Assembly (NCBI GenBank): GCA_051047955.1
Contig: JBPGPT010000063.1
Coordinates: 1 to 34,502 of the forward strand
Length of the DNA stretch: 34,502 nt
DNA from: Cystobasidiomycetes sp. EMM_F5
Taxonomy: Eukaryota
Direction of reading: 5' to 3'
The notes beneath the pieces are model-generated. The model was given only the letters and a program-made list of their open reading frames with translations. It ran no database searches and was not told the origin of the DNA. The position numbers were made by a program, and so were the translations under genes. Shown here one piece after another: positions 2,925 through 24,960 of the stretch (the stretch's first letter is position 1; the number at the start of each line of letters is the position of its first letter).

Positions 2925-3375
2925 GGTTCTTTAGCGGGGCCAGTGACTCGTGCTTGCTGGCAGGACTAGCAGTCTACTGTCAGATGTCGTAGAGCGGTAA
3001 TCGCAGAGTTATGATTGCACTGGTTGGAAGGAGAACAACCCAGACAGCTGGTGACATTTCCAATTCAAAGAACGAAGATGGCACTCCATCTTCCAATCAA
3101 TATCAAGGACACTCATGAAAGCTATGCTCAGTTGATGAAAGCAAAGGCAGTCAGCAGCATTAGGCGGCTCTGGCTCGCCATCTGAAAACAACCCCGCCCC
3201 GCTTGACAAGCCCTCGTCGGGCTGGCGGGCAGCTCTGCAACTAACAAGCAAGCACGCCGAAGCCAATGGGCAAGCTCTCAACCCGACGCGCCCTTCTTGC
3301 TTTGCATCTAACTCCTGGAAACCGCTTATCGCACTTTACACCCTGATATTATACGCCAACTGATCCATTTCGGCC

Positions 3376-6300
3376 ATGTCAGCGTTCGGCATGACGGGCA
3401 CATTCCAGATACAGTATGCCTGGCAAATCTTTGTGCTCAAGTTCCTGTTGGTCGTGGTCACAGCATGGCTGTTCGTCCGGTTGAGTCTGTCCTTCCTACT
3501 GTCGACCTTCCTTCATTCGCATATACGCATCGGTCATGTAGGATGGTTCAGCTTTGGCAACATCCAATGGGAAATTGGCAGGCATGCATGGAACACGTCA
3601 AAGACACTTCGCGTGCATCGCGTAAACGTAGGCCGCATAGGGTGGGTAATTAGGTCTGGATCAGCAAAGCACAATGATGCAAAAGGCATCGGGTGGCTTG
3701 GGTTCGCCTTGACGGAGGTTACTGCGGAGATAGCTCTTGTTGCACCGAAAAGTCTCTCAACGGTCGACCCTGCTCCTCCACAAGAAAACGGCAATACCGT
3801 CCACGGCGACGGTAACAAGCAGGATGCTCATCGAAGCGGAAAGTACAACGCACCGCAACGACATGTCGCTCCGTCAACTATCCTGGGCCAGTTCCGTGCT
3901 ATCATTGTAAATATTCACCAAGCTCGCAGGGCTCTTCGCACGCGGCTCGTTGAACTGGCACCAAAACTCGTAGGGCACGGCGTCATACGTGCTCGCGACT
4001 ACTTCACAGCTCCGCTTCGGAGTGTACTGGACAGTTTCGTAAGACGGGCAATGCTTGGTGCTCAGTATCTGGCCATCGAGCTTGCCAACGTAGTTATCAG
4101 CATGCCTGAGATTCAATATGAGCTGCGACTGCAGTCACTCCTTCTAGGTGCGCAAATCGTCCGAGGCCAGCAAAACTACATAGAGTTCTGGTCTCGCATC
4201 GAAAATATAGCCCTCTCAGCTCAACAGCAGACGCAAGACACGTGTAATGAGACAGTGCACCACAAGAATCAGAGTGTCACACCTGTCCTCAGCGTGAGTG
4301 AGACGTTTACTATTGAGGCTCGAGCGAGCTTCGATCCGGCAGTTGGCATTTCTGGCCTGTGTAAGCGGAATTCGTCAGGATCTCTGGAACCGCGCAAATC
4401 GATTCTAGACGTACATGCCGGCTTCGAAAGCGAGGCGGTATCAGACCACAACGAACGCTCAAAGGTGCGACCATCGGTACATGTCTTTATGACTTCTGCA
4501 TTGGACCTGGCGAACCGTATCACATCGCGCCTGTCGCCAAAACCTCATCTTGGACCACACTTAGGTCCGCACATGCATCGGCCGACCAATTGGGATACGG
4601 ACGGCCCAATGCACACGCTGTCCGAAACATCAAGCCCCATTGCAACGCGGCAAAACCCACTGGGCATGCTGAAAGCTGTTCGCTTTGTGTTACCATTGTG
4701 TCTCGTAGAAGCAGAAGTGCAGAGTAGTGACCACACGCCTCTGAAATACATATACGAAGCCAAGCTTCGCGGTCTCGCTATCAAGATCGCCCTTGGCGAG
4801 GTGATCGACAATACTCGCAAGCACTCGGAATGGTTCGGAAGTCGTACTGCCCTCAAGGCAGCTGCTGGCTGTGGGTTCGAAAAGCTCGAGATTAATGCGA
4901 TGGCAGTGTCAAACAACAATTGTACGTTCTCGCGCCATGGGCGAAGCGGTAACGATACTGACATCCACGCCCCTGACCAGACACAGTGGTATCCGCATCC
5001 CGCTTGATAGAGATCACCGCTTCCGGCGCAAGCCTCACGTCGACATGGCTGCCGAGAAGGCTGGACATGCTCGTCACACCGGTACAGGACCTCATTACTG
5101 AAGGCAAGACCGCCAAAGCGGCCTTCGTTGAAGATCGGAACGCTTGCATTGCGATAATCGAATGCGACATTGGTGGCATTCATGGCGAAGTGGGCATAGA
5201 CATGCTTGAGGATATACTTCGTCTACTAGCGGTCGCGAACACAGCTCCAGCTGGACCGCACACCGATGCTTCCACACCTGATAGACACAATGATCTGGAC
5301 AAGCTTTTGTACACCCCTCCTTCGATTGTGATGGCCGTGGAATTGGGCAGATGTGGCTATCGCATTACCGGGCCGAAAAAAGAACACAAGTCACACTTTG
5401 GACCAGGCGAAGATGGCGGTGACTTGACGAACGGGTGGAAAGGGCCATCAGCTATGGTTTTATCGATACCATTCGCGTCCTTTCACGTTTCCACCGCATA
5501 TACTGACGTGTGCCTTCAACGCACGCTGAACGAGAAGAAAGAAATGCTACGACTCTTACGGAAGGGCAAGATACCCATTCCGGACGTTCTAAGCGCCAGT
5601 CTCGACCGACAGTCCGATGGTGGGGCTCCTCCCGGTCTAAGTCGCTCGACTCGTCTGCGACTTTTCGATTTCAGTGGAGACAGCCTCGGTGAGGACGATG
5701 AGTCTGGCTCGGCGACTCTCTCACCGATGGAATCGCCTGCTGCCTTCCCACGTAACCAACAGAGTCCTACTCATGCAGATCTCAGCGACTGCCCCTTTAT
5801 CCGACCGGGCAACACTTCCGGCAGTTTCAACGCGCCCGTCACTATCGCTGTCCGCGCGAGCGAAGACGGAATGCGTATGCACCACTTTGTCTATAAGGTG
5901 CAATCTTACCTGAACATCGGCCGTTCGGAACTCTGTTTAATAGGCCATCCCGAAAGCTCTATTGCTAATGCAACTCGAACCAACCCGACCTCGGCGGGAA
6001 CATCCAGGACTTCCTTCCCACCACAATCTTCGACATCTCCATCTACACCTAGTCGACAACAACCGAAGACTGCCTACCTCGAACGCTTTGACCTCTTGTC
6101 GTTTGGACCCGTTACATTTGACACAGCGCTTGAAATGGCTGGATCGGAAGTGCGGGATCGCGTTGCTACGATGGCTGGAATCGATACGCATTCGGCTGTA
6201 GTTGATTGTCAACATCGTAGAGCCACCATAAGGCTACAGATTGAGAATGTTTTGGCCGACTTGACGCGAATCAGCGTGCATGATGCCCTCAACGGCCTTG

Positions 6301-9300
6301 TGCAGCGCCTATATGACGTCAAGAGTTCGTTCCACGCATCAAGCTTCAGTGGAATAGATACCGCCCAACCTGCTTCATGTACGTCGCATCAGGAGCACCT
6401 CGACAGCGCGCCAATACCAGGGACGCGTCCTTTCATCGATCGTCTACTGTCCGATGTTCACGTAGTGTTGGGCATTGGCAATATTGACATTCACGTTGCT
6501 GGGCCTGATCCCAAATGCAATCCAGGAGTCTGTCGAGGCGTCGCTATCCAGATCCAAACTGCCGTCATCGAGTGCTATAAGCAGTCACGCCCCCATAAAG
6601 TTTTGGTGGAACCCCACGTACGTGCGTCACTTGGATTACAATATGATCTCTTCGCGCACGCAAATGTCGAACAGTCCCGCCTACCTCATATTCCGCAGGG
6701 TTATGTTATGCTTTCTCTAGCCAAGTTAAGCATAAATCCCCTTAAGGATGCTGGTACGTCCTCGAGGTCTGCCCGGGTTCTCCGCGCAAAAACAAGCGTA
6801 AACAGTGAAGGACAAGAGGAGGCGGGTTCTGCAGTTCCATGGGAACTACGAAATCGTGACAAGCTGCTTGGCAGAAAAGCACACCGCTACTTTGACGATG
6901 TCAAAAATCGACAGGCGAACATCTCCCACGCACTTATCAGAGATTACGTATGGCTCCCGTCGCTGTCTGTACGTATATCGACGTGGGCAGATGAAGACGC
7001 GAGCAGCCCTGTCAGCCACTTTGGCATCGATCTCAGCGTCCCAACTATCATTATACGCATCGAGATCTTCCCGATCTATTGCTATTTGATGGCCTTCTCC
7101 GCGCTACAATCTCTCTTGCCGATTGGACGCTCTCCTACGTCGGCGTCGGCCGCGTCTGTACCAGATCATCTTACACATCAGCAAGCGGTTGTGCGGTTCC
7201 GAGCGACACTCCCTGAATTGCATGCGTATCTCGACCTTGGTCACAATGTGCAGCTCTTCGCACGCTTTCGTAATACTAGAGTCACAAAATCTAGCTCCGG
7301 CGAAACTGTCTGTTATATTGAGCATGGCATTGTGGCTGTGGCAAGCGTATCCTCAAAAGGTCGGTGGGAAGATCTGCTGCGTCTGCGAGAATGGAACGTC
7401 ACCTTAAGCGAGGAGGATAGTCACAAGGGCTACGGCAAGCACTCTGTCAACCTCAGCGGTATGGGCGCGAGATTGCGCATACCTTTTGCCTACCCGTTCT
7501 CAGAAGTTATCGAGCACTCTGCGACTTTCGTGAAGACGCTGAAGCAGCTAATGCATCAATTCATCCAAGGACAGTACAACTTTGTCATTAATCCGCATCC
7601 CGAGGATGCCAAGAAGCTTCCCCGGATCAGAGTCGCACTGAAAGTGCTTGTTCTGGAAGCGGAAGATGACCCCTTTGAGACAAGAATCAATCTCATTTGG
7701 CGTGCCGGCGTGGCAGAGCAGGCCGAAAGAGTAAAACGATGGAAAGTCTTTGATGATAAAGTCGCACAGCACAAAGCTGACATCCAGGCATGGCGAGATG
7801 GCGGCTGCGAGGGTGCGGGTCCGCAGCATGCAGTCCAGGAGCAGGACGCTCGGGCTATGCTGATGGGTGTCAACTCCACTAAGTGGGTGCAGCGCCATCG
7901 CAATGCTGTGGCAACCCGAGTGAGCAGAGAAGAGGCACAGCTACGGCGCTTGTATGCAGGACGAGTCACAGCAGGAGCGCTCGTCGAATCAGGCCTACCC
8001 ATTGATCTTATTTCCACGACCGGCAGCACACCCTTATTCCGCATGGCACTTGAGTCGCCAGTCCTTGAATTCACAAAGCCATCCTTCTCAGAATCTCCGA
8101 CCGGTCTCCAGGACTTCCTGTTCGACGTGGGCAAAGGCATGCCCAAGGACACTCAGTACTCGCTCTTGATACCTTTTCGTATACACTGGCAGATGAGCGA
8201 GGCCAGGGTAACGCTTCGTGACTTTCCATTACCGCTGCTGCACGTTCCTCCGGTTGATGCTACCGACCACAACCATAAGTCGTGGCAATTGTCAAGCGAC
8301 TTTGTGATTGCAGAAGAGATGGGAGGACCCGAGACAATTCGATACGTGCCTTCGCTAATTGTGCCCCGTGCGGGCAACACTGGCAGTCCGCATGTTCCGT
8401 ATATTATGGAGGTGCCCCGCACCGCCATGCCTGTCAAGATGTATGCCGTCCCAAAGATTGTCATCAATTCTAAATGGGCTACGCGTATAGGGTGGGGGAA
8501 TTCTATCCAGCCTACTATACAGGATGTGATGCGAGTCATTGACTCGCTGACCAAATCCCCTCCCGACCCGTCTGAGCGCATGGGATTTTGGGACAAGATC
8601 CGGCTCAAACTTCATTGGCGGATATGTATCGACTTTGAAGGCGAAGGCCCATTACATTTCATCCTGAAAGGCTCCCGCGATCCATATAGCCTCGAACACA
8701 CCGGGGCTGGGTTTGCTCTGTGCTGGTCAAAGTCTGTCCGTTGGCAGATCGGCCACAAGAATAACGAGAATGAATTCTTCCAGATTCACAGCAAGGAATT
8801 CGTGCTGGCAGTACCAGGTCCGTGCCTTTTGTCCCCCTCCGATCGTCAGCTGGGCACCGATACTGATGAGTGACCCGAAAATCAGACTTGAAGGATTTTG
8901 TCGATGCCGCAGCTACTGGGATCATCAAGCGGCAGACGATGTCTGACGCAGTCGACGAGTCTGGAGTAGGTATACATTCATCGCATGACTCCGCTCGTCC
9001 TGTCTACCGAACCAATCAGGATTTTGCCAAAGTCTGCGCGAAGTTCCTCGGCGGGGTTAGATGGGGCATAGGCATGAGAATGGAGCGCGCTTGTCGACCC
9101 GATACATGTATAACGGGAAAGTGCTCTGGTAGCCTCCTACAGCGCGCGTGTCGTCTGTGGGACTTCGTCCCTCACTACAAGGTCTCAACGCTTTCCGGTC
9201 CAGCCGTTCGGCCTAGCCCCGTGAGCCCGTTCTTTGTCCGTCAGCCACTTTTCCAGACCGCACTGACACCTTCACGCAGGAGCACGACTCCTTTGCTGGC

Positions 9301-12300
9301 TTCCGGTCCGATTTTGTGCACTTCTCGGTCTCTGTCGCTGCACCTGACGCTCAAGAGAAGGCAAACTCAATCCATATGACGCCAAATGCGTTCGATCACT
9401 TTTGGTCATGGTGGCATCTTTTCGACGGTACCCTGTCATTACCTATTCGCCAAGGCAGAATTTTCCCAAGCACACAACCCGCTAGCAAGAAATTTGGTAA
9501 AAGTTGTGCGACAATCAAGTACCGTGCCCAATTGTCTCCGGTATTCATAGCACACACTAGCCAGCAGCACGAGCGTGCGGATGAATGGCGTGAGGGTTTC
9601 ACAACTTTATTCGGCATAAAGGGACGCATCGATCATTTCAATGTTGATCTTCATCAACGCGAAGAAGTGGATCATGTATGGAGCGAAGGGCTCAATATGA
9701 CGAGGAGACGGACGCACAAGCCCTTCTGGCGAGCCGAAGTAGACTGTCGCGTCACCGATCTCAGAGTTCTCGTGACTCGCTACCTTGACGTTACGAAGCG
9801 TCTGGTGGGAACAACAATGGCCTTTGCACCAGAAGAGCCTGATGACGTGCCGGAACTATTTGGGCTGGATGACCCTGATAACCAGCATGCTGATGATGAT
9901 CAGGCATGGCTCGACCGCGATGACTATTGCGATCTAGGAATAAGGTTACCGGAGCAAACCCCTCGATTCCGCATGTGGCCATGCTTCACATCGCCCAGAT
10001 TGACCTACTCACGTAATACGGAACCCCAGCATGTCAGTCTGGAAGACGACGGAAGCGCACAGAGCGATCGCTGTGGCGTGTCCAAATTCAACAAAGAGAG
10101 TACTCACTTCTGTCTCCTTGACAGAGCTGCCAGTCCGTTCATTCACATACTCAATCGAAGTGGTGCTGAAAACGTTCCGAATACAGATCCAATTGACGTG
10201 CAGCTGGCCCTGGCGCAAGATCGGAGTACGGAACTTGAACAAGAACTATTGCAGGCGCACATGTCGAAAATGGACGCTGTTAGTGGAATGAGGCTAATAC
10301 CCCTTTCCATTGTTAATGTGGCTGACTCTATAGTTGAGCAGACCGCAAACGACATCGCTTCGTTGCATCGGCAACTCGAAGGCATTGACAAGCTGCTTGA
10401 TCGGTACCGCCTCTTACAAAAGGAAGAGGCTCGTCGTCGTGCTGCGACGGCCGGGCAAGATGATCAAACAGCAGAAGACAACTTTGCCAGCATACTCCAA
10501 GACAAGGCTGAAGGTCTCGACTCCAACATCTATGCAGATATTGGTGAATTCGTCAATCGCTTAGTTATACACAATCCACACGTAGTCGTAACGCAACAGA
10601 TACGCGACATTTTGTTGCGATACTACTACAACTCCCGCACTCGAAAGCTCTTGGAATGTGGGTGATTTCCATACAGTCTGTTACTTGCGCACTCTGACCG
10701 CATACATTCCAGATGCCATGACTGCTAAAGCCATCAAATTCATCAAGGACCTGATAGTCGACGAGTCTGACCCCAACGAGGCACGAGAGCAAGAACGTCG
10801 GCAGAGAGCGCAGCGACGGAGGGGTCCTCCGCCTAATACAGCCGGCAAAGCGAAGCACAAGGACTATGGCGACCTTTTGGACGAGTTGCTGAAAGACGAT
10901 GGCGTTCGGTGGAGCTTGAACAGCACACGTAGTGGGCGCACCACTTCGGCTGCCAGCGAGTCCGACTCCTTAGCTTCGACACACGAAGCGGATCCTCACG
11001 CAGAGGCGGCACAAGACTTGGCCGATACTTGGAGCATACGCAATTCTTTCATTGTATCCATATTTAAACCTCAAATCGCCCTCAATTCGGACACCAGTAT
11101 CGACACAACTCTCATAGTGTCTGCTCTAGCTGTACAGCTACGATCATTTGCCGTCATGGACGAAAAGCACATTGAGGACCCCGTCAATGCTTTAGTCATG
11201 CATCGAAATTTCGGTACGATCGATCAATTGCAGGCCTTTTACCCACATATGCGAGGATGGAGGAGCGGCAAACGATCCCGCCTACTTGGTTCCGCTGCCG
11301 GTTTTGTCCCGCTTGAAGTACTTGCGGGATATGCTGATGATCCGGCTGATCTGGATCGCATCGTGCCCAGAACAGGCGCACGTCTGCGCTACGACAAACA
11401 TAATCGTCTGAGATTGGCTCGGAATCGCGACAGTAGCGGCGGTAGGACGAAACTGAGCGACAGCTGTTCTAGCAGTGTCGACCGTCTATTGGTCGATTGC
11501 GAACGCTTTTCCGTATCTGCAACTCCCACGCACTATGGGGCCATCTACGAGGTAATCACAGGTCTCATCTTGTACACGGATCCAAACCAGAAAGCGAGGT
11601 CGCAGAAGATAGAGAAGATAGTCCTGTCTAAGAGCTTCTCCGATAGGCAAGGCATTGCTCGCCAAATCGAAATGCAACAACAGGAGCTTCGTGCCCTCAT
11701 GACGGAAGCTATCCGAGATGCACAAGTCGGTGTTGAAACTTTGTCTCCCGACGAACTTCTTCGCTACTATACGCGAGGTAGCGACATACTCAACAGAATG
11801 GACGTGCTCACCTTGTGGATGAGCGCAATTCAGACTGCTCAGAATACGCGCAACTCGGGCAGATCCATGGGTATGCAGCTGGACGCCAAGGCTCGCGAGA
11901 TCGTGTGGCATATGCGAGAAGAGCACGGCACGCCTCTGGTGAAGGTGGCAATTCAGCGCATCCAATACCGCTGGCTCAACAGCAGTGACGGCTCTGTATC
12001 CAATGCGCTGGTGATTGGCGATCTCAACGCCCTCAATAGCAGTCCTGACCAATATTTTCCCGAAATCGTTTCTAAATACTTTCCCACCACTGGTGAACAA
12101 AATACAATGCGGTCAGATCTCTTCGCAGTTTTGCTGTGGTCTATCCAATCCCCTGTTGGAGGCATTGCTGTAGTAGACCGCTTAGAGACGCATCTACACT
12201 TTATACGCTTGCAACTGGAACAGACCATCGGAAAAAAGGTGATGAATTACATATTTCAGCAACGATCGCCTCGCAATGTGGGGAAGGGGAGCAGTCGAGA

Positions 12301-13492
12301 GTCGTCACCCACTCGCGACAATGGTGGGGACCCGAGTGGACGGAAACGTTTGGCCAAAACCCCTTCGAGGGAGAGCCTGTTGTATGGGCGACAATCACAA
12401 GAAGTCGTCGTTTCACCTCGAAGCGATGTTTCTTCTCTTCGAGTGCCGGGTTCAGCCAGCTCAACCGCATCAATGACCTCGTCGCGGGCTGCCTCTTTGC
12501 GACAGGTATCTTCGAATGAAAGTCTGGGTCTTATCGCTGCAAGAATGGATGACTATCTGGATGCCGAGGAGATGCGAGAGCGGGCCCGCCTTAATCGAGC
12601 ATTTCTGCATGTCGAAATATTTCCAACTACGTTCTGTTTGTCCTTCAAGGTCAGTTGTTGCACATCAATCCTCAAATCGAGGTTTCAGACTAAATGCTGT
12701 AGTTGATGTAGGGATCTAAATCGACAAGCGTTCCAGATGTTTATGGTCTCATCTACAAATTCCCTCCGGTTGTCCATTGTAATCGTATCTGGACTTGTAA
12801 GCTTCGCTGCAACTCCCTCCATACGAGTCTGACTGTTTCTTCCATATGTAGACCTGGACTTGATTACGAGCGTGAAAAAGGGTGCGTGTAGGCGGATATG
12901 AATCGCATTGCAACCTGCTAACCTGTTCTGGATTTAAATAGATTGGAAAGCGAGTGTATGGGCGCAGGGTGCAGGTCTCCTTGGCCAAGTATTGACCACA
13001 GCCAGGCGTCCAGGAAACGTAAAGAACGTGGTACAACAACGTCTGCTCGGCCATTCGGGGAACGACAAGTCTTCACCTAGTCAGCCGACAGGATTTCGTA
13101 AAAAACGAACGTTCACAGGGCCATTCCGTCTTCGAGCTAGCAATAGTGGCGAGCCTGCAGCGATCTCTTCTGTGCAACCTGGCCCAACCTCTCCGCTTCG
13201 TGCGTCTGTGCTAGGTTCGCGTACAGACACTCCGCACGTTGCGTCACACAACGACAGCCAACCCTTTGTTGCCGGCTCAAATGAATCCGACAGCGATCAC
13301 GATACTTCCTCCTCTTCTTCGAGTCCTGCAGGCGACAGCGGGAATGATGTGTTGGATGACTATGCTGATCATTCCACCGTATTTGAAGACTCGCCAGGCA
13401 GATCCGGCAGTCTGAAGAATGCTATCGTCACGAGGTTGCGCCATCCTACAGGTGACTCATCCGCCACAGCCTTCACCGCCACAAGTTCGTAG
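3376..13492 (+). CDS. FMP27: FMP27/Hobbit/BLTP2-like bridge-like lipid transfer protein (~3,200 aa, multi-exon)
   Basis: An N-terminal hydrophobic anchor is followed by family-typical motifs: EDDPFETRINLIW, DTQYSLLIP, LRDFPLPLL, PPDPSERMGFWDK (GFWDK motif), LKGSRDPY, GAGFALCW, GFRSDFVHFS, HMTPNAFDHFWSWWHLF, SLPIRQG..F...KKFGK, VDLHQREE. Predicted introns: 4922-4980, 8818-8885, 9221-9279, 10133-10186, 10279-10341, 10658-10712, 12650-12711, 12797-12851, 12882-12941. Stop is TAG at 13490-13492. Confidence 0.9.
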
Positions 13493-21938: not shown

Positions 21939-24900
21939 ATGACGGTCAAGACCGCGTACGCCATCCCGCAGCTGGCGCCCGAAAGTCTGGCAAATATCAA
22001 GGCATTGCTGCGAATTGTCATTCTAGGAGCTATTGCCGGAGCTGCAGTCGCATCGAGGCTATTTGCCGTTGTTCGGTTCGAGAGCATCATTCATGAGGTG
22101 GGTATGCATATTGCTGCAGTGTAAAGCGATGCTGAAAGCCGCTGCCTCTGCAGTTTGATCCGTACGTTTTCAGTTGAAGAAGCGGGCGTCAGCTAACATC
22201 GTCTAATACGCTTTACGACTGAATGTAGATGGTGCGTACTACCTCCAAAGCGGACGGCTGTCCGCCAGCTGGCTGTTCTGACTCTGCCCGAAATCCTGTC
22301 CTCCAGGTTCAATTATCGTGCAACAATGACTCTGACGTCTGGCGGTTTCTACGAATTCTGGAATTGGTAAGTCCTGTTATTTGCCATTACATTGATCTAA
22401 GTCGACGTCCAAATGCAGGTTCGATGAGACTGCTTGGTACCCTCTAGGTCGCGTTGTGGGCGGAACAGTCTATCCAGGTGAAGAATATCGAGGACAATGC
22501 AGATCATAGCTGAAGCTGGTCACATGCACACCATAGGCATCATGGTCACTTCTGGTGTCATCTATAATGTCTTGCATTTCCTCAACATCCCCGTCAACAT
22601 TCGCGATGTCTGCGTCATGTTGGCACCTGCTTTCAGTGGTCTCACTGCATAGTGAGGCTAGTAAAGCGAGATCCTAATGGCTGGACTGACTTCTTTCCTA
22701 CAGTGTCACGTTTCTTTTAGGCAGGGAATTGGGTCGCGACGAGGAAGGGAAAGGAGGCGAAGGAACAGGCTTGTGGGCTGCCCTGTTCATCGGCATTGCA
22801 CCTGGGTACATCTCTCGCTCAGTGGCCGGATCATACGACAACGAAGCGATTGCAATCTTCCTGCTCATGTTCACCTTTTACCTTTGGATAAAGGCACTCA
22901 AGGAGGGGTCTGCCCTCTACGGATCCATTACCGCTGTCTTTTACTTCTACATGGTCGCTGCTTGGGGCGGGTACGCTTTTATCACAAACATGCTGCCAAT
23001 GCATGCCTTCGCCCTCCTTTGTATGGGTCGCTACTCGCAGCGGCTATACGTGTCCTACTCGGCTTTCTATGCAGTAGGCACGTTGGCTTCTATGCAAGTA
23101 CCGTTCGTTGGGTTTCAACCGATGCGCACGTCCGAGCACATGTCGGCGCTCGGAGTATTTGGATTATTGCAGCTCGTGGCATTTGCAGAGCTCGTGCGCG
23201 GCCTGGTACCCAGCGCCCAGTTCAAATTACTTTTGCGAACATCACTTGTCTTATCAGCAGTCATTGGGGCGGGTGCAATTGCCCTGCTGACCAGCAAAGG
23301 CTGGATTGCTCCATGGACTGGACGCTTTTACTCGCTGTTCGACACGGAATACGCGAAGATACACATTCCAATCATTGCATCGGTCTCGGAACATCAGCCT
23401 ACAGCCTGGCCTTCTTTCTTCTTCGATCTCAACCTTTTGATTTGGTTGTTCCCGGCCGGTATCGTTTTGTGCTTTCGAACGCTTCGGGAGGAGCACGTTT
23501 TTATCATCATTTATGCTCTGGTTGGCTCGTACTTCGCTGGTGTTATGGTGCGACTCATGTTGACTCTCACCCCCTGTGTCTGCCTGTCGGCTGCAATGGT
23601 CGTTGGCAAGCTTGTGCAAACGTACTTAGATCCAGTCCTTCCAGGAGCAGCGGCAGATGTCAGATCAGTCGAAGGTACACGGAGCGAAGTTGTACCCAAG
23701 GACGTGCTGGAGGACGATGCTTCAGCTGTGTCTACGAGCGTGCCGGATGCTCCGCTGGCTACAGCCACTCCCACGAAGCGCAAATCAAAACCTCAAGCTC
23801 AGAGTACCGATTCATACTCCGTCCCTCTAGCGAGCAAAGCAAACTCTGCCGAAGCTGCACTACGCGGCTTGGATCTCCGTGCCGCTGTTCTTCTGTTTTT
23901 CGGCGGCCTTTTGGGAATCTTTGTCCTCCACTGTACTTGGGTCACATCCAATGCCTACTCGTCACCATCAGTCGTCTTGTCAAGTAGAGGGGCAGACGGT
24001 AGTAACATCCTTATTGACGATTTCCGGGAAGCGTACTACTGGCTGAGGAGGAATACAGCCGAAGATGCGAAGATTCTATCGTGGTGGGATTACGGCTATC
24101 AGATTGCAGTAGGTCGATCCTCGCGCGATGTGCACTCCCGCTGATATCCTGGCTGTAGGGATTCGCGAACCGGACGACCCTCGTTGATAACAATACCTGG
24201 AACAATACACATATTGCGACTGTTGGGAAAGTCCTGGCCACTCGGGAAGAGGTAGCATACCCCGTTCTCAAAAAGCACGACGTAGATTACATTCTCGTCA
24301 TCTTTGGTGGACTGATCGGATACAGTGGCGACGGTGAGTTCAATGGGCAACTTAATTGAAATCGCAGCTAAACGAAGATACGACCATCTTCTACACTACT
24401 AACATGACGTATTCAGAGTGCGTTGTACTTCTCCTTGTCAAAACGCGTGCTCCACTGACGATTTTTTGTTTTTTTGTGCTGGAAACTGCGATATCTTCTA
24501 ATTTATAACGTTCTGGGCACGCAACTGACTCGTAAACGGTCGTTTCAGCCTAAACAAGCTGTTGTGGCCGATAAGGATTGCGCAAGGCGTCTTCCCTGAC
24601 GAAGTTGATGAAAAAAACTATTTCACGCCCCGAGGAGAATATCGAATGGATGCGGAGGCTACGACAACAATGCGAGAGTCGTTGATGTACAAGATGAGCT
24701 ACTATCGCTTCACTGAGCTGTTTGGAGGGCAGCCAGCAACGGACCGCGTTAGGAATCATCAAATTCCGTCCCCTGGTCCCGTTCTGGACGCGTTCGATGA
24801 AGCTTTCACTTCGGAGAACTGGATTGTCAGAATCTACAAGGTGAAGAAGGAGGACACGCTAGGTCGTGATCATAAATCTGCAAATGGTTTCGACTCCGGC

Positions 24901-24960
24901 AGGCGGAAGAAGAAGGTCAAGGCTGCTGGCTCTGCGGGGCGGAGACGAAGCAGTGTGTAG
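21939..24960 (+). CDS. STT3: Oligosaccharyltransferase catalytic subunit STT3
   Basis: Predicted join(21939..22097,22154..22161,22229..22231,22307..22366,22419..22477,22537..22651,22704..24108,24159..24333,24417,24549..24960). Motifs: [103 protein letters not shown]. Confidence 0.96.
24397..24403 (+). promoter_or_regulatory. Consensus branch point TACTAAC upstream of the predicted 1-nt STT3 exon
   Basis: A perfect TACTAAC ends 13 nt before the acceptor G (24416) in TTCAG|A|GTGCGT. Confidence 0.8.

Follow-up and report, generated by a model that had tools for sequence, protein, structure and literature searches.

Can the invariant active-site residues of an enzyme be encoded by exons of only a few nucleotides (nt)? 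The question is raised by the gene for STT3, the catalytic subunit of oligosaccharyltransferase, which lies intact on the plus strand at positions 21939-24960 of a 34,502-nt stretch of DNA (hereafter the window; contig JBPGPT010000063.1 from Cystobasidiomycetes sp. EMM_F5). The host of this gene is a basidiomycete related to Mixia. In the gene, the four invariant active-site residues FDPW are split over two tandem micro-exons, one of 8 nt and the other of 3 nt, which are separated from each other and from the neighbouring exons by short introns. The evidence reported below supports this reading at the level of the sequence, and we put the probability that both micro-exons are part of the main mRNA at about 85%.

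The 8-nt exon, TTTGATCC, is directly preceded by ctgcctctgcag and directly followed by gtacgt, and the 3-nt exon, ATG, lies directly between gaatgtag and gtgcgt. Each micro-exon has an AG before it and a consensus-type GT donor after it. The exon that starts at 22307 begins with GTTCAATTATCGT and is preceded by cctgtcctccag; there the frame resumes as G TTC AAT TAT CGT. The introns around the micro-exons measure 56, 67 and 75 nt; the four ordinary introns in this gene range from 50 to 59 nt. When a script joined the exons at their coordinates, IIHE-FDPW-FNYR (HEFDPWFNYR) was restored. A preliminary description of this locus had placed the 8-nt exon at 22154-22161 and the 3-nt exon at 22229-22231 and had stated that together they restore IHE-FDPW-FNYR exactly. 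Direct reading of the DNA found all of its coordinates and strings to be correct, and the joined exons do translate in this way. Its predictions for exon skipping hold as well: without the 3-nt exon the frame is kept and the tryptophan (Trp) alone is lost, and without the 8-nt exon the frame is shifted and meets a stop at codon 76.

To describe the whole gene, we built by hand a model with 10 exons (Table 1), which comprises 798 codons and no internal stops. The closest named relative is the GT66/STT3 protein of Mixia osmundae (69% identity), followed by rusts and other Pucciniomycotina. In a blastp comparison, residues 1-797 of the model and residues 1-793 of Mixia STT3 are colinear from end to end (68% identity, 4 gaps), including the N-terminus encoded by exon 1. 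The large exon at 22704-24108 matches the Pfam family STT3 (PF02516, the N-terminal membrane domain) with an E-value of 7.6e-88, and the yeast and human STT3 chains of solved structures match Mixia STT3 with E-values of 3e-277 or better. The model also shares 75% identity with the uninterrupted frame of a transcript-like metagenome record (L001). In a tree built with FastTree on a stitched alignment, which is approximate and carries no support values, the relatives follow outward from the window STT3 in the order P0003, then P0005 and L001, then Mixia. The tree includes 89 of 93 rows; those with fewer than 200 aligned residues (L048, L054, L065 and L068) were left out.

These data bear on the possibility that the gene is a decaying or untranscribed copy, in which case the micro-exons would be meaningless. 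The analysis covers a single 34.5-kb window, which leaves some room for a second STT3 copy and hence for this view. However, a run of 798 codons free of stops, intact catalytic motifs throughout, full-length identity with Mixia STT3 at 68% and nine introns with canonical ends make a decaying copy very improbable.

Which residues depend on the micro-exons can be answered by comparison with the yeast enzyme. Residue 22 of Mixia STT3 aligns to residue 14 of yeast STT3, and by this offset the aspartate (Asp) of EFDP, which is residue 55 both in Mixia and in the window model, corresponds to yeast D47. According to passages of a review (PMC7226087), yeast D47 is the equivalent of PglB D56 and contacts the carboxamide on the acceptor Asn as well as the catalytic metal. 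The alignment offset and these passages agree with the earlier statement that the EFDP Asp is a catalytic acidic residue of STT3. In the window gene this Asp is present only when the 8-nt exon is spliced in. The D-x-E metal-binding motif and the WWD motif were read in the large exon and are identical in the relatives; the mapping of D-x-E to yeast D166/E168 was taken from passages of the same review (PMC7226087) and not computed.

Another part of the active site depends on an even smaller exon. Within the gap 24334-24548, a single A at 24417 is preceded by ttcag and followed by gtgcgt, and supplies the central base for the second Asp codon in GDDLNK, the DK motif. Passages of PMC7226087 assign to K586 of this motif a contact with the +2 Ser/Thr. 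In the window, GDDLNK requires the 1-nt exon; without position 24417 the frame shifts and meets a stop at codon 662. By hand count, the Lys of the DK motif follows the last Tyr in WWDYGY at a distance of 65 residues, matching yeast Y521 and K586. The proposal that two active-site motifs of one enzyme sit on extreme micro-exons is supported at the level of the sequence, where the DK motif gets its second Asp only through the 1-nt exon. A shared donor, GTGCGT, had also been claimed for the 3-nt and 1-nt exons, and the same hexamer is indeed read at 22232 and after 24417; it is one among several consensus donor variants in the gene. At the site of the 1-nt exon, the introns of the window are unique among 45 resolved loci, 35 of which have no intron, seven an intron at offset 18 and two an intron at offset 2; the solver left 36 loci without a solution at this site.

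How far is the micro-exon reading forced by the sequence? A depth-first search from the His codon enumerated every GT-AG path that had no more than three introns, each 30-500 nt long. A single path encodes HEFDP[WYF]FN[YF]R, and it is the path through the 8-nt and 3-nt exons, which is therefore the sole canonical solution of this exhaustive search. When the search was relaxed to admit GC donors, introns of 20 nt and four introns, it added one alternative only, in which the Trp would come from another 3-nt exon, CTG at 22269-22271; the further paths repeated the same solution and placed a spurious fourth intron past the motif. The CTG exon depends on a GC donor that fits the consensus poorly (GCTGTT) and on a last intron of 35 nt, in which the single CTGAC begins 8 nt past the donor, and we find its use hardly credible.

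Other arrangements were also tried and rejected. A single intron spanning 22098-22306 leaves the wrong frame. For an exon that is read on to FDPY, reasoning from the sequence gives no acceptor that yields FNYR, and the relaxed search contains no such path. The other in-frame paths encode unrelated residues (for example HERAFNYR, HEVDGAFNYR and HEPLPLQFNYR).

We also measured how often such solutions arise by chance, using 20000 dinucleotide-preserving shuffles of the 209-nt gap. HEFDP[WYF]FN[YF]R was encoded through a GT-AG path in 0/20000 shuffles, and HEFDPFN[YF]R likewise in 0/20000. With the 8-nt exon fixed, some 3-nt exon restoring the residue was found in 376/20000 shuffles, and in 19/20000 when it was followed by a GTRNGT donor.

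The motif itself is strongly conserved. The 10 full-length named relatives examined all have ESIIHEFDPWFN[YF]R. With the same solver we analyzed 80 STT3 loci from a metagenome scan (L001-L080), resolving 67 of them at the motif and leaving 13. HEFDPWFN[YF]R is encoded in 67/67 resolved loci, and Trp is present in all of them even though the solver allowed Tyr or Phe. This conservation has to be set against the possibility that the 8-nt exon is used while the 3-nt exon is mostly skipped, with splicing from the donor at 22162 to the acceptor at 22306 and a main protein that lacks Trp. Such a path is canonical and in frame, and an exon of 3 nt is the hardest to define. Nevertheless, Trp is invariant in every relative examined, the 3-nt exon is followed by a strong donor, intron 2 has branch motifs and an acceptor of its own, and chance supplies an exon of this kind, followed by a GTRNGT donor, in the 19/20000 shuffles given above. 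We consider predominant skipping distinctly unlikely.

To compare intron positions, we expressed them as offsets, counted along the 30 bases that encode HEFDPWFN[YF]R. No intron interrupts the motif in 15 of the 67 resolved loci, several of which are transcript-like. The most frequent arrangement, found in 33 loci, combines offsets 8 and 26 and encloses an 18-nt micro-exon. Single introns occur at offset 7 in 11 loci, at offset 5 in three, at offset 14 in four (L015, L016, L024 and L031) and at offset 6 in one (L047). The loci with offset 14 are not close relatives of the window in the tree, and L047 falls among Microbotryomycetes. For basidiomycete STT3 this stretch of the motif is a hot spot of introns, which sit at offsets 5, 6, 7, 8, 14 and 26. 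Together with offset 17 of the window, seven positions within 30 coding bases are read from DNA, and an eighth, offset 10, is suggested by an open reading frame (ORF) of P0123, described below.

The 13 remaining loci include L023 and L063, which by eye are of the 8 and 26 type and bring the number of loci with the 18-nt micro-exon to about 35, and L066, which begins inside the motif; the ten others lack the motif region. In L023 (9-270) there is an in-frame TAA, CAC TAA TT versus CAC GAA TT in relatives, which is either an error or the mark of a dead copy. L063 (3490-3750) has a GC-AG intron with a GCAAGT donor at offset 8.

The nearest clade was examined through short ORFs running out of exon 1 and on into the intron, and hence through peptides rather than DNA. 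Among the relatives with a read-through ORF the closest is P0123; its N-terminus is 76% identical to that of the window protein, and it breaks after HEF with GES. This peptide fits a GTGAGT donor preceded by G at offset 10, not 6. P0124 reads HEFDPW, continues with CV and stops 9 codons after Trp, as would be expected from a GTGYGT donor at offset 17. P0125 and P0126 diverge directly after Trp, with RV, and no GT donor could be assigned to them.

A separate observation concerns P0003, the closest relative of the window STT3 (79% identical). In its ORF, about 20 unrelated residues separate SWWD from GYQIAGF, a pattern consistent with an in-frame intron whose GTAAGT donor lies within the Tyr codon of WWDYG. 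The window gene has no intron at WWDYG, and judging from the peptide this clade would thus have a further catalytic motif that hosts an intron.

The fate of unspliced forms differs among the three introns. Retention of intron 1 leads to a stop at codon 61 and retention of intron 2 to a stop at codon 60. The length of intron 3 is a multiple of three and the intron is stop-free, so that its retention adds 25 residues after Trp and gives 823 codons to the stop. One may therefore propose that there is no 3-nt exon, that 22229-22366 is a single exon and that intron 3 is translated as a 25-residue insertion between Trp and Phe. The frame does stay open over these 823 codons, an open frame at 22197-22367 is seen, and by our estimate roughly one in ten 75-nt introns would be in frame and stop-free by chance. 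But no insertion after Trp was found in 67/67 loci, in the 10 full-length relatives or in L001. Moreover, intron 3 has a GTGCGT donor, a CTGAC placed 25 nt from a pyrimidine-rich CAG and a typical length, and the read-through of P0124 soon meets its stop, 9 codons after Trp. Translation of intron 3 in the main product is unlikely.

The same two elements, the 3-nt exon and the in-frame 75-nt intron, could in principle serve as a splicing switch, in which skipping would remove Trp and retention would add 25 residues. We regard this as a long shot. If it were true, both forms would yield a stable STT3 whose active-site loop is altered, and both would be spared by nonsense-mediated decay. The introns crowded on catalytic codons (FDPW and DK here, WWDYG in the closest relative) would then be functional and not neutral.

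Returning to the inclusion of both micro-exons in the main mRNA, several points weigh against it. Because intron 3 is in frame and stop-free, a premature stop would not catch the unspliced form. The break of P0123 at offset 10 means that conservation is unable to vouch for intron 1, and this intron has no perfect CTRAY but only a near-consensus CTGAA; in the gene as a whole, a perfect CTRAY is missing in 3/9 introns (intron 1 and two others). The comparison of intron positions across fungal STT3 genes that the preliminary description had suggested supports it in part: offsets 14 and 6 are both used elsewhere, each of them singly, but the combined 6, 14 and 17 layout, or any intron at offset 17, occurs in 0/67 resolved loci. 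Finally, the splicing order and the steric constraint proposed below draw on general background on splicing.

The splice signals of the gene are of the usual kind. All nine introns have canonical ends, and their donors are, in order, GTGGGT, GTACGT, GTGCGT, GTAAGT, GTGAAG, GTGAGG, GTAGGT, GTGAGT and GTGCGT, with intron lengths of 56, 67, 75, 52, 59, 52, 50, 83 and 131 nt. Intron 2 contains CTAAC 32 nt and CTAAT 22 nt from the 3' splice site, and in intron 3 the CTGAC lies 25 nt from the pyrimidine-rich CAG acceptor.

We suggest that the 8-nt and 3-nt exons are constitutive spliceosomal micro-exons between three independent short introns. Each intron has its own consensus-type GT donor and its own AG acceptor, introns 2 and 3 have in addition a CTRAY of their own, and removal of all three produces HEFDPWFNYR. 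Recognition probably occurs by intron definition, as in other short fungal introns. U1 pairs with donor positions -3 to +6, and the spliceosome covers many upstream exon bases. A 3-nt exon is too small for two spliceosomes side by side, and the introns would therefore have to leave in succession. Once an intron is gone, the micro-exon would form the end of the neighbouring exon; since it merges with its neighbour at each step, the same mRNA would result whatever the order.

No unusual RNA fold was detected in the region 22085-22320 (z-score -0.83; 38/200 shuffles fold as well), which gives no sign of an RNA structure that brings the splice sites together. As for the source of the introns, a search with blastn-short restricted to this window found no similarity among the nine introns or between them and the 34.5-kb sequence (best E-value 0.05), and an introner-like family of repeated introns was rejected on these grounds. 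Most likely, the arrangement arose through lineage-specific gain or differential retention of introns in the STT3 intron hot spot.

Earlier work has described fungal exons of 1-3 nt, in Coprinopsis and in Fusarium, so that the kind is known and no new principle is involved. For the basidiomycete Coprinopsis cinerea, passages of a long-read study report 13, 57 and 27 exons of 1, 2 and 3 nt, respectively, and 1165 gene models (about 9% of genes) in which an internal exon measures at most 15 nt (PMC12230235). These passages describe the same situation as is proposed for STT3, namely internal exons of 1-3 nt between spliceosomal introns of a basidiomycete, whose omission breaks gene models. The Coprinopsis set, however, is transcript-supported, genome-wide and from another subphylum, and its passages contain neither STT3 nor a tandem pair. 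In Fusarium, passages of PMC12940212 describe a 1-nt exon in the PKG motif of CYP621A, confirmed by SRA reads and conserved in 20 orthologues. As here, an extreme micro-exon in an invariant enzyme motif was inferred there through a phase mismatch and an intron-free relative. Unlike STT3, CYP621A is an ascomycete P450 and has, according to these passages, a single micro-exon that is supported by reads and kept in orthologues. The same source, in the passages concerned, describes a P450 of Phanerochaete chrysosporium with an 8-nt micro-exon in the I-helix motif. There too, a conserved catalytic motif in a basidiomycete enzyme contains an exon of 8 nt, but as described it is a single micro-exon in another family.

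The Agaricomycete-type STT3 loci of our sample involve the same gene and the same motif. In these loci an 18-nt micro-exon between two short introns encodes (F)DPWFN(Y/F), including the catalytic Asp. They use offsets 8 and 26 and one exon of 18 nt, whereas the window uses offsets 6, 14 and 17 and exons of 8 and 3 nt. In plants, a single-nucleotide exon of Arabidopsis APC11 was reportedly described by Guo and Liu in 2015 and would show that spliceosomal inclusion of exons below 3 nt is possible. Our literature searches found no STT3 with a micro-exon, and neither the tandem pair in this gene nor its combination with the 1-nt exon was found in print by these searches; the sole mention of 'microexon' in PMC3990503, on Cryptococcus, is an aligner setting.

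The catalytic Asp and the reading frame of the window model hang on exons of 8, 3 and 1 nt. Such exons tend to escape ordinary gene finders and short-read aligners, and automatic annotation of this lineage will probably yield an STT3 that is broken or wrong. The locus is a compact natural test case, having three introns inside 11 coding bases and, in the same gene, a further two that are one base apart. It could show the smallest exon that the spliceosome keeps and whether neighbouring introns need a fixed order of removal. The intron-rich stretch of the motif is also useful for the study of intron gain, loss and sliding.

Table 1. Exons and introns of the STT3 gene model, in positions of the window; offsets as defined in the text.
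Feature	Position	Strand	Description
Exon 1	21939..22097	+	start codon at 21939 to ...FESIIHE, 53 codons; ends CATGAG, then gtgggt
Intron 1	22098..22153	+	56 nt, GTGGGT...CAG (gtgggt...ctgcag); after Glu codon of HE, offset 6
8-nt micro-exon TTTGATCC	22154..22161	+	Phe, catalytic Asp (equivalent of yeast D47), two bases of Pro
Intron 2	22162..22228	+	67 nt, GTACGT...TAG (gtacgt...atgtag); offset 14
3-nt micro-exon ATG	22229..22231	+	last base of Pro codon and first two bases of Trp codon
Intron 3	22232..22306	+	75 nt, GTGCGT...CAG (gtgcgt...ctccag); offset 17
Exon 4	22307..22366	+	third base of Trp codon, then 19 residues, two bases of Trp
Rest of STT3	22367..24960	+	exons 22419-22477, 22537-22651, 22704-24108, 24159-24333, 24417 (1-nt, A), 24549-24960 (including stop)

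The neighbours of STT3 are Mak16 upstream, on the minus strand, and ERCC1/Rad10 downstream. The window as a whole (1-34502) carries ordinary fungal nuclear housekeeping genes, such as those for a WD40 protein, Hobbit/FMP27 (3364-12703) and a NUBP-type P-loop NTPase (minus strand). It also contains RCC1 repeats, a histone-fold protein, a CCDC90-like protein, Rad9 and ERCC4 with an HHH domain.

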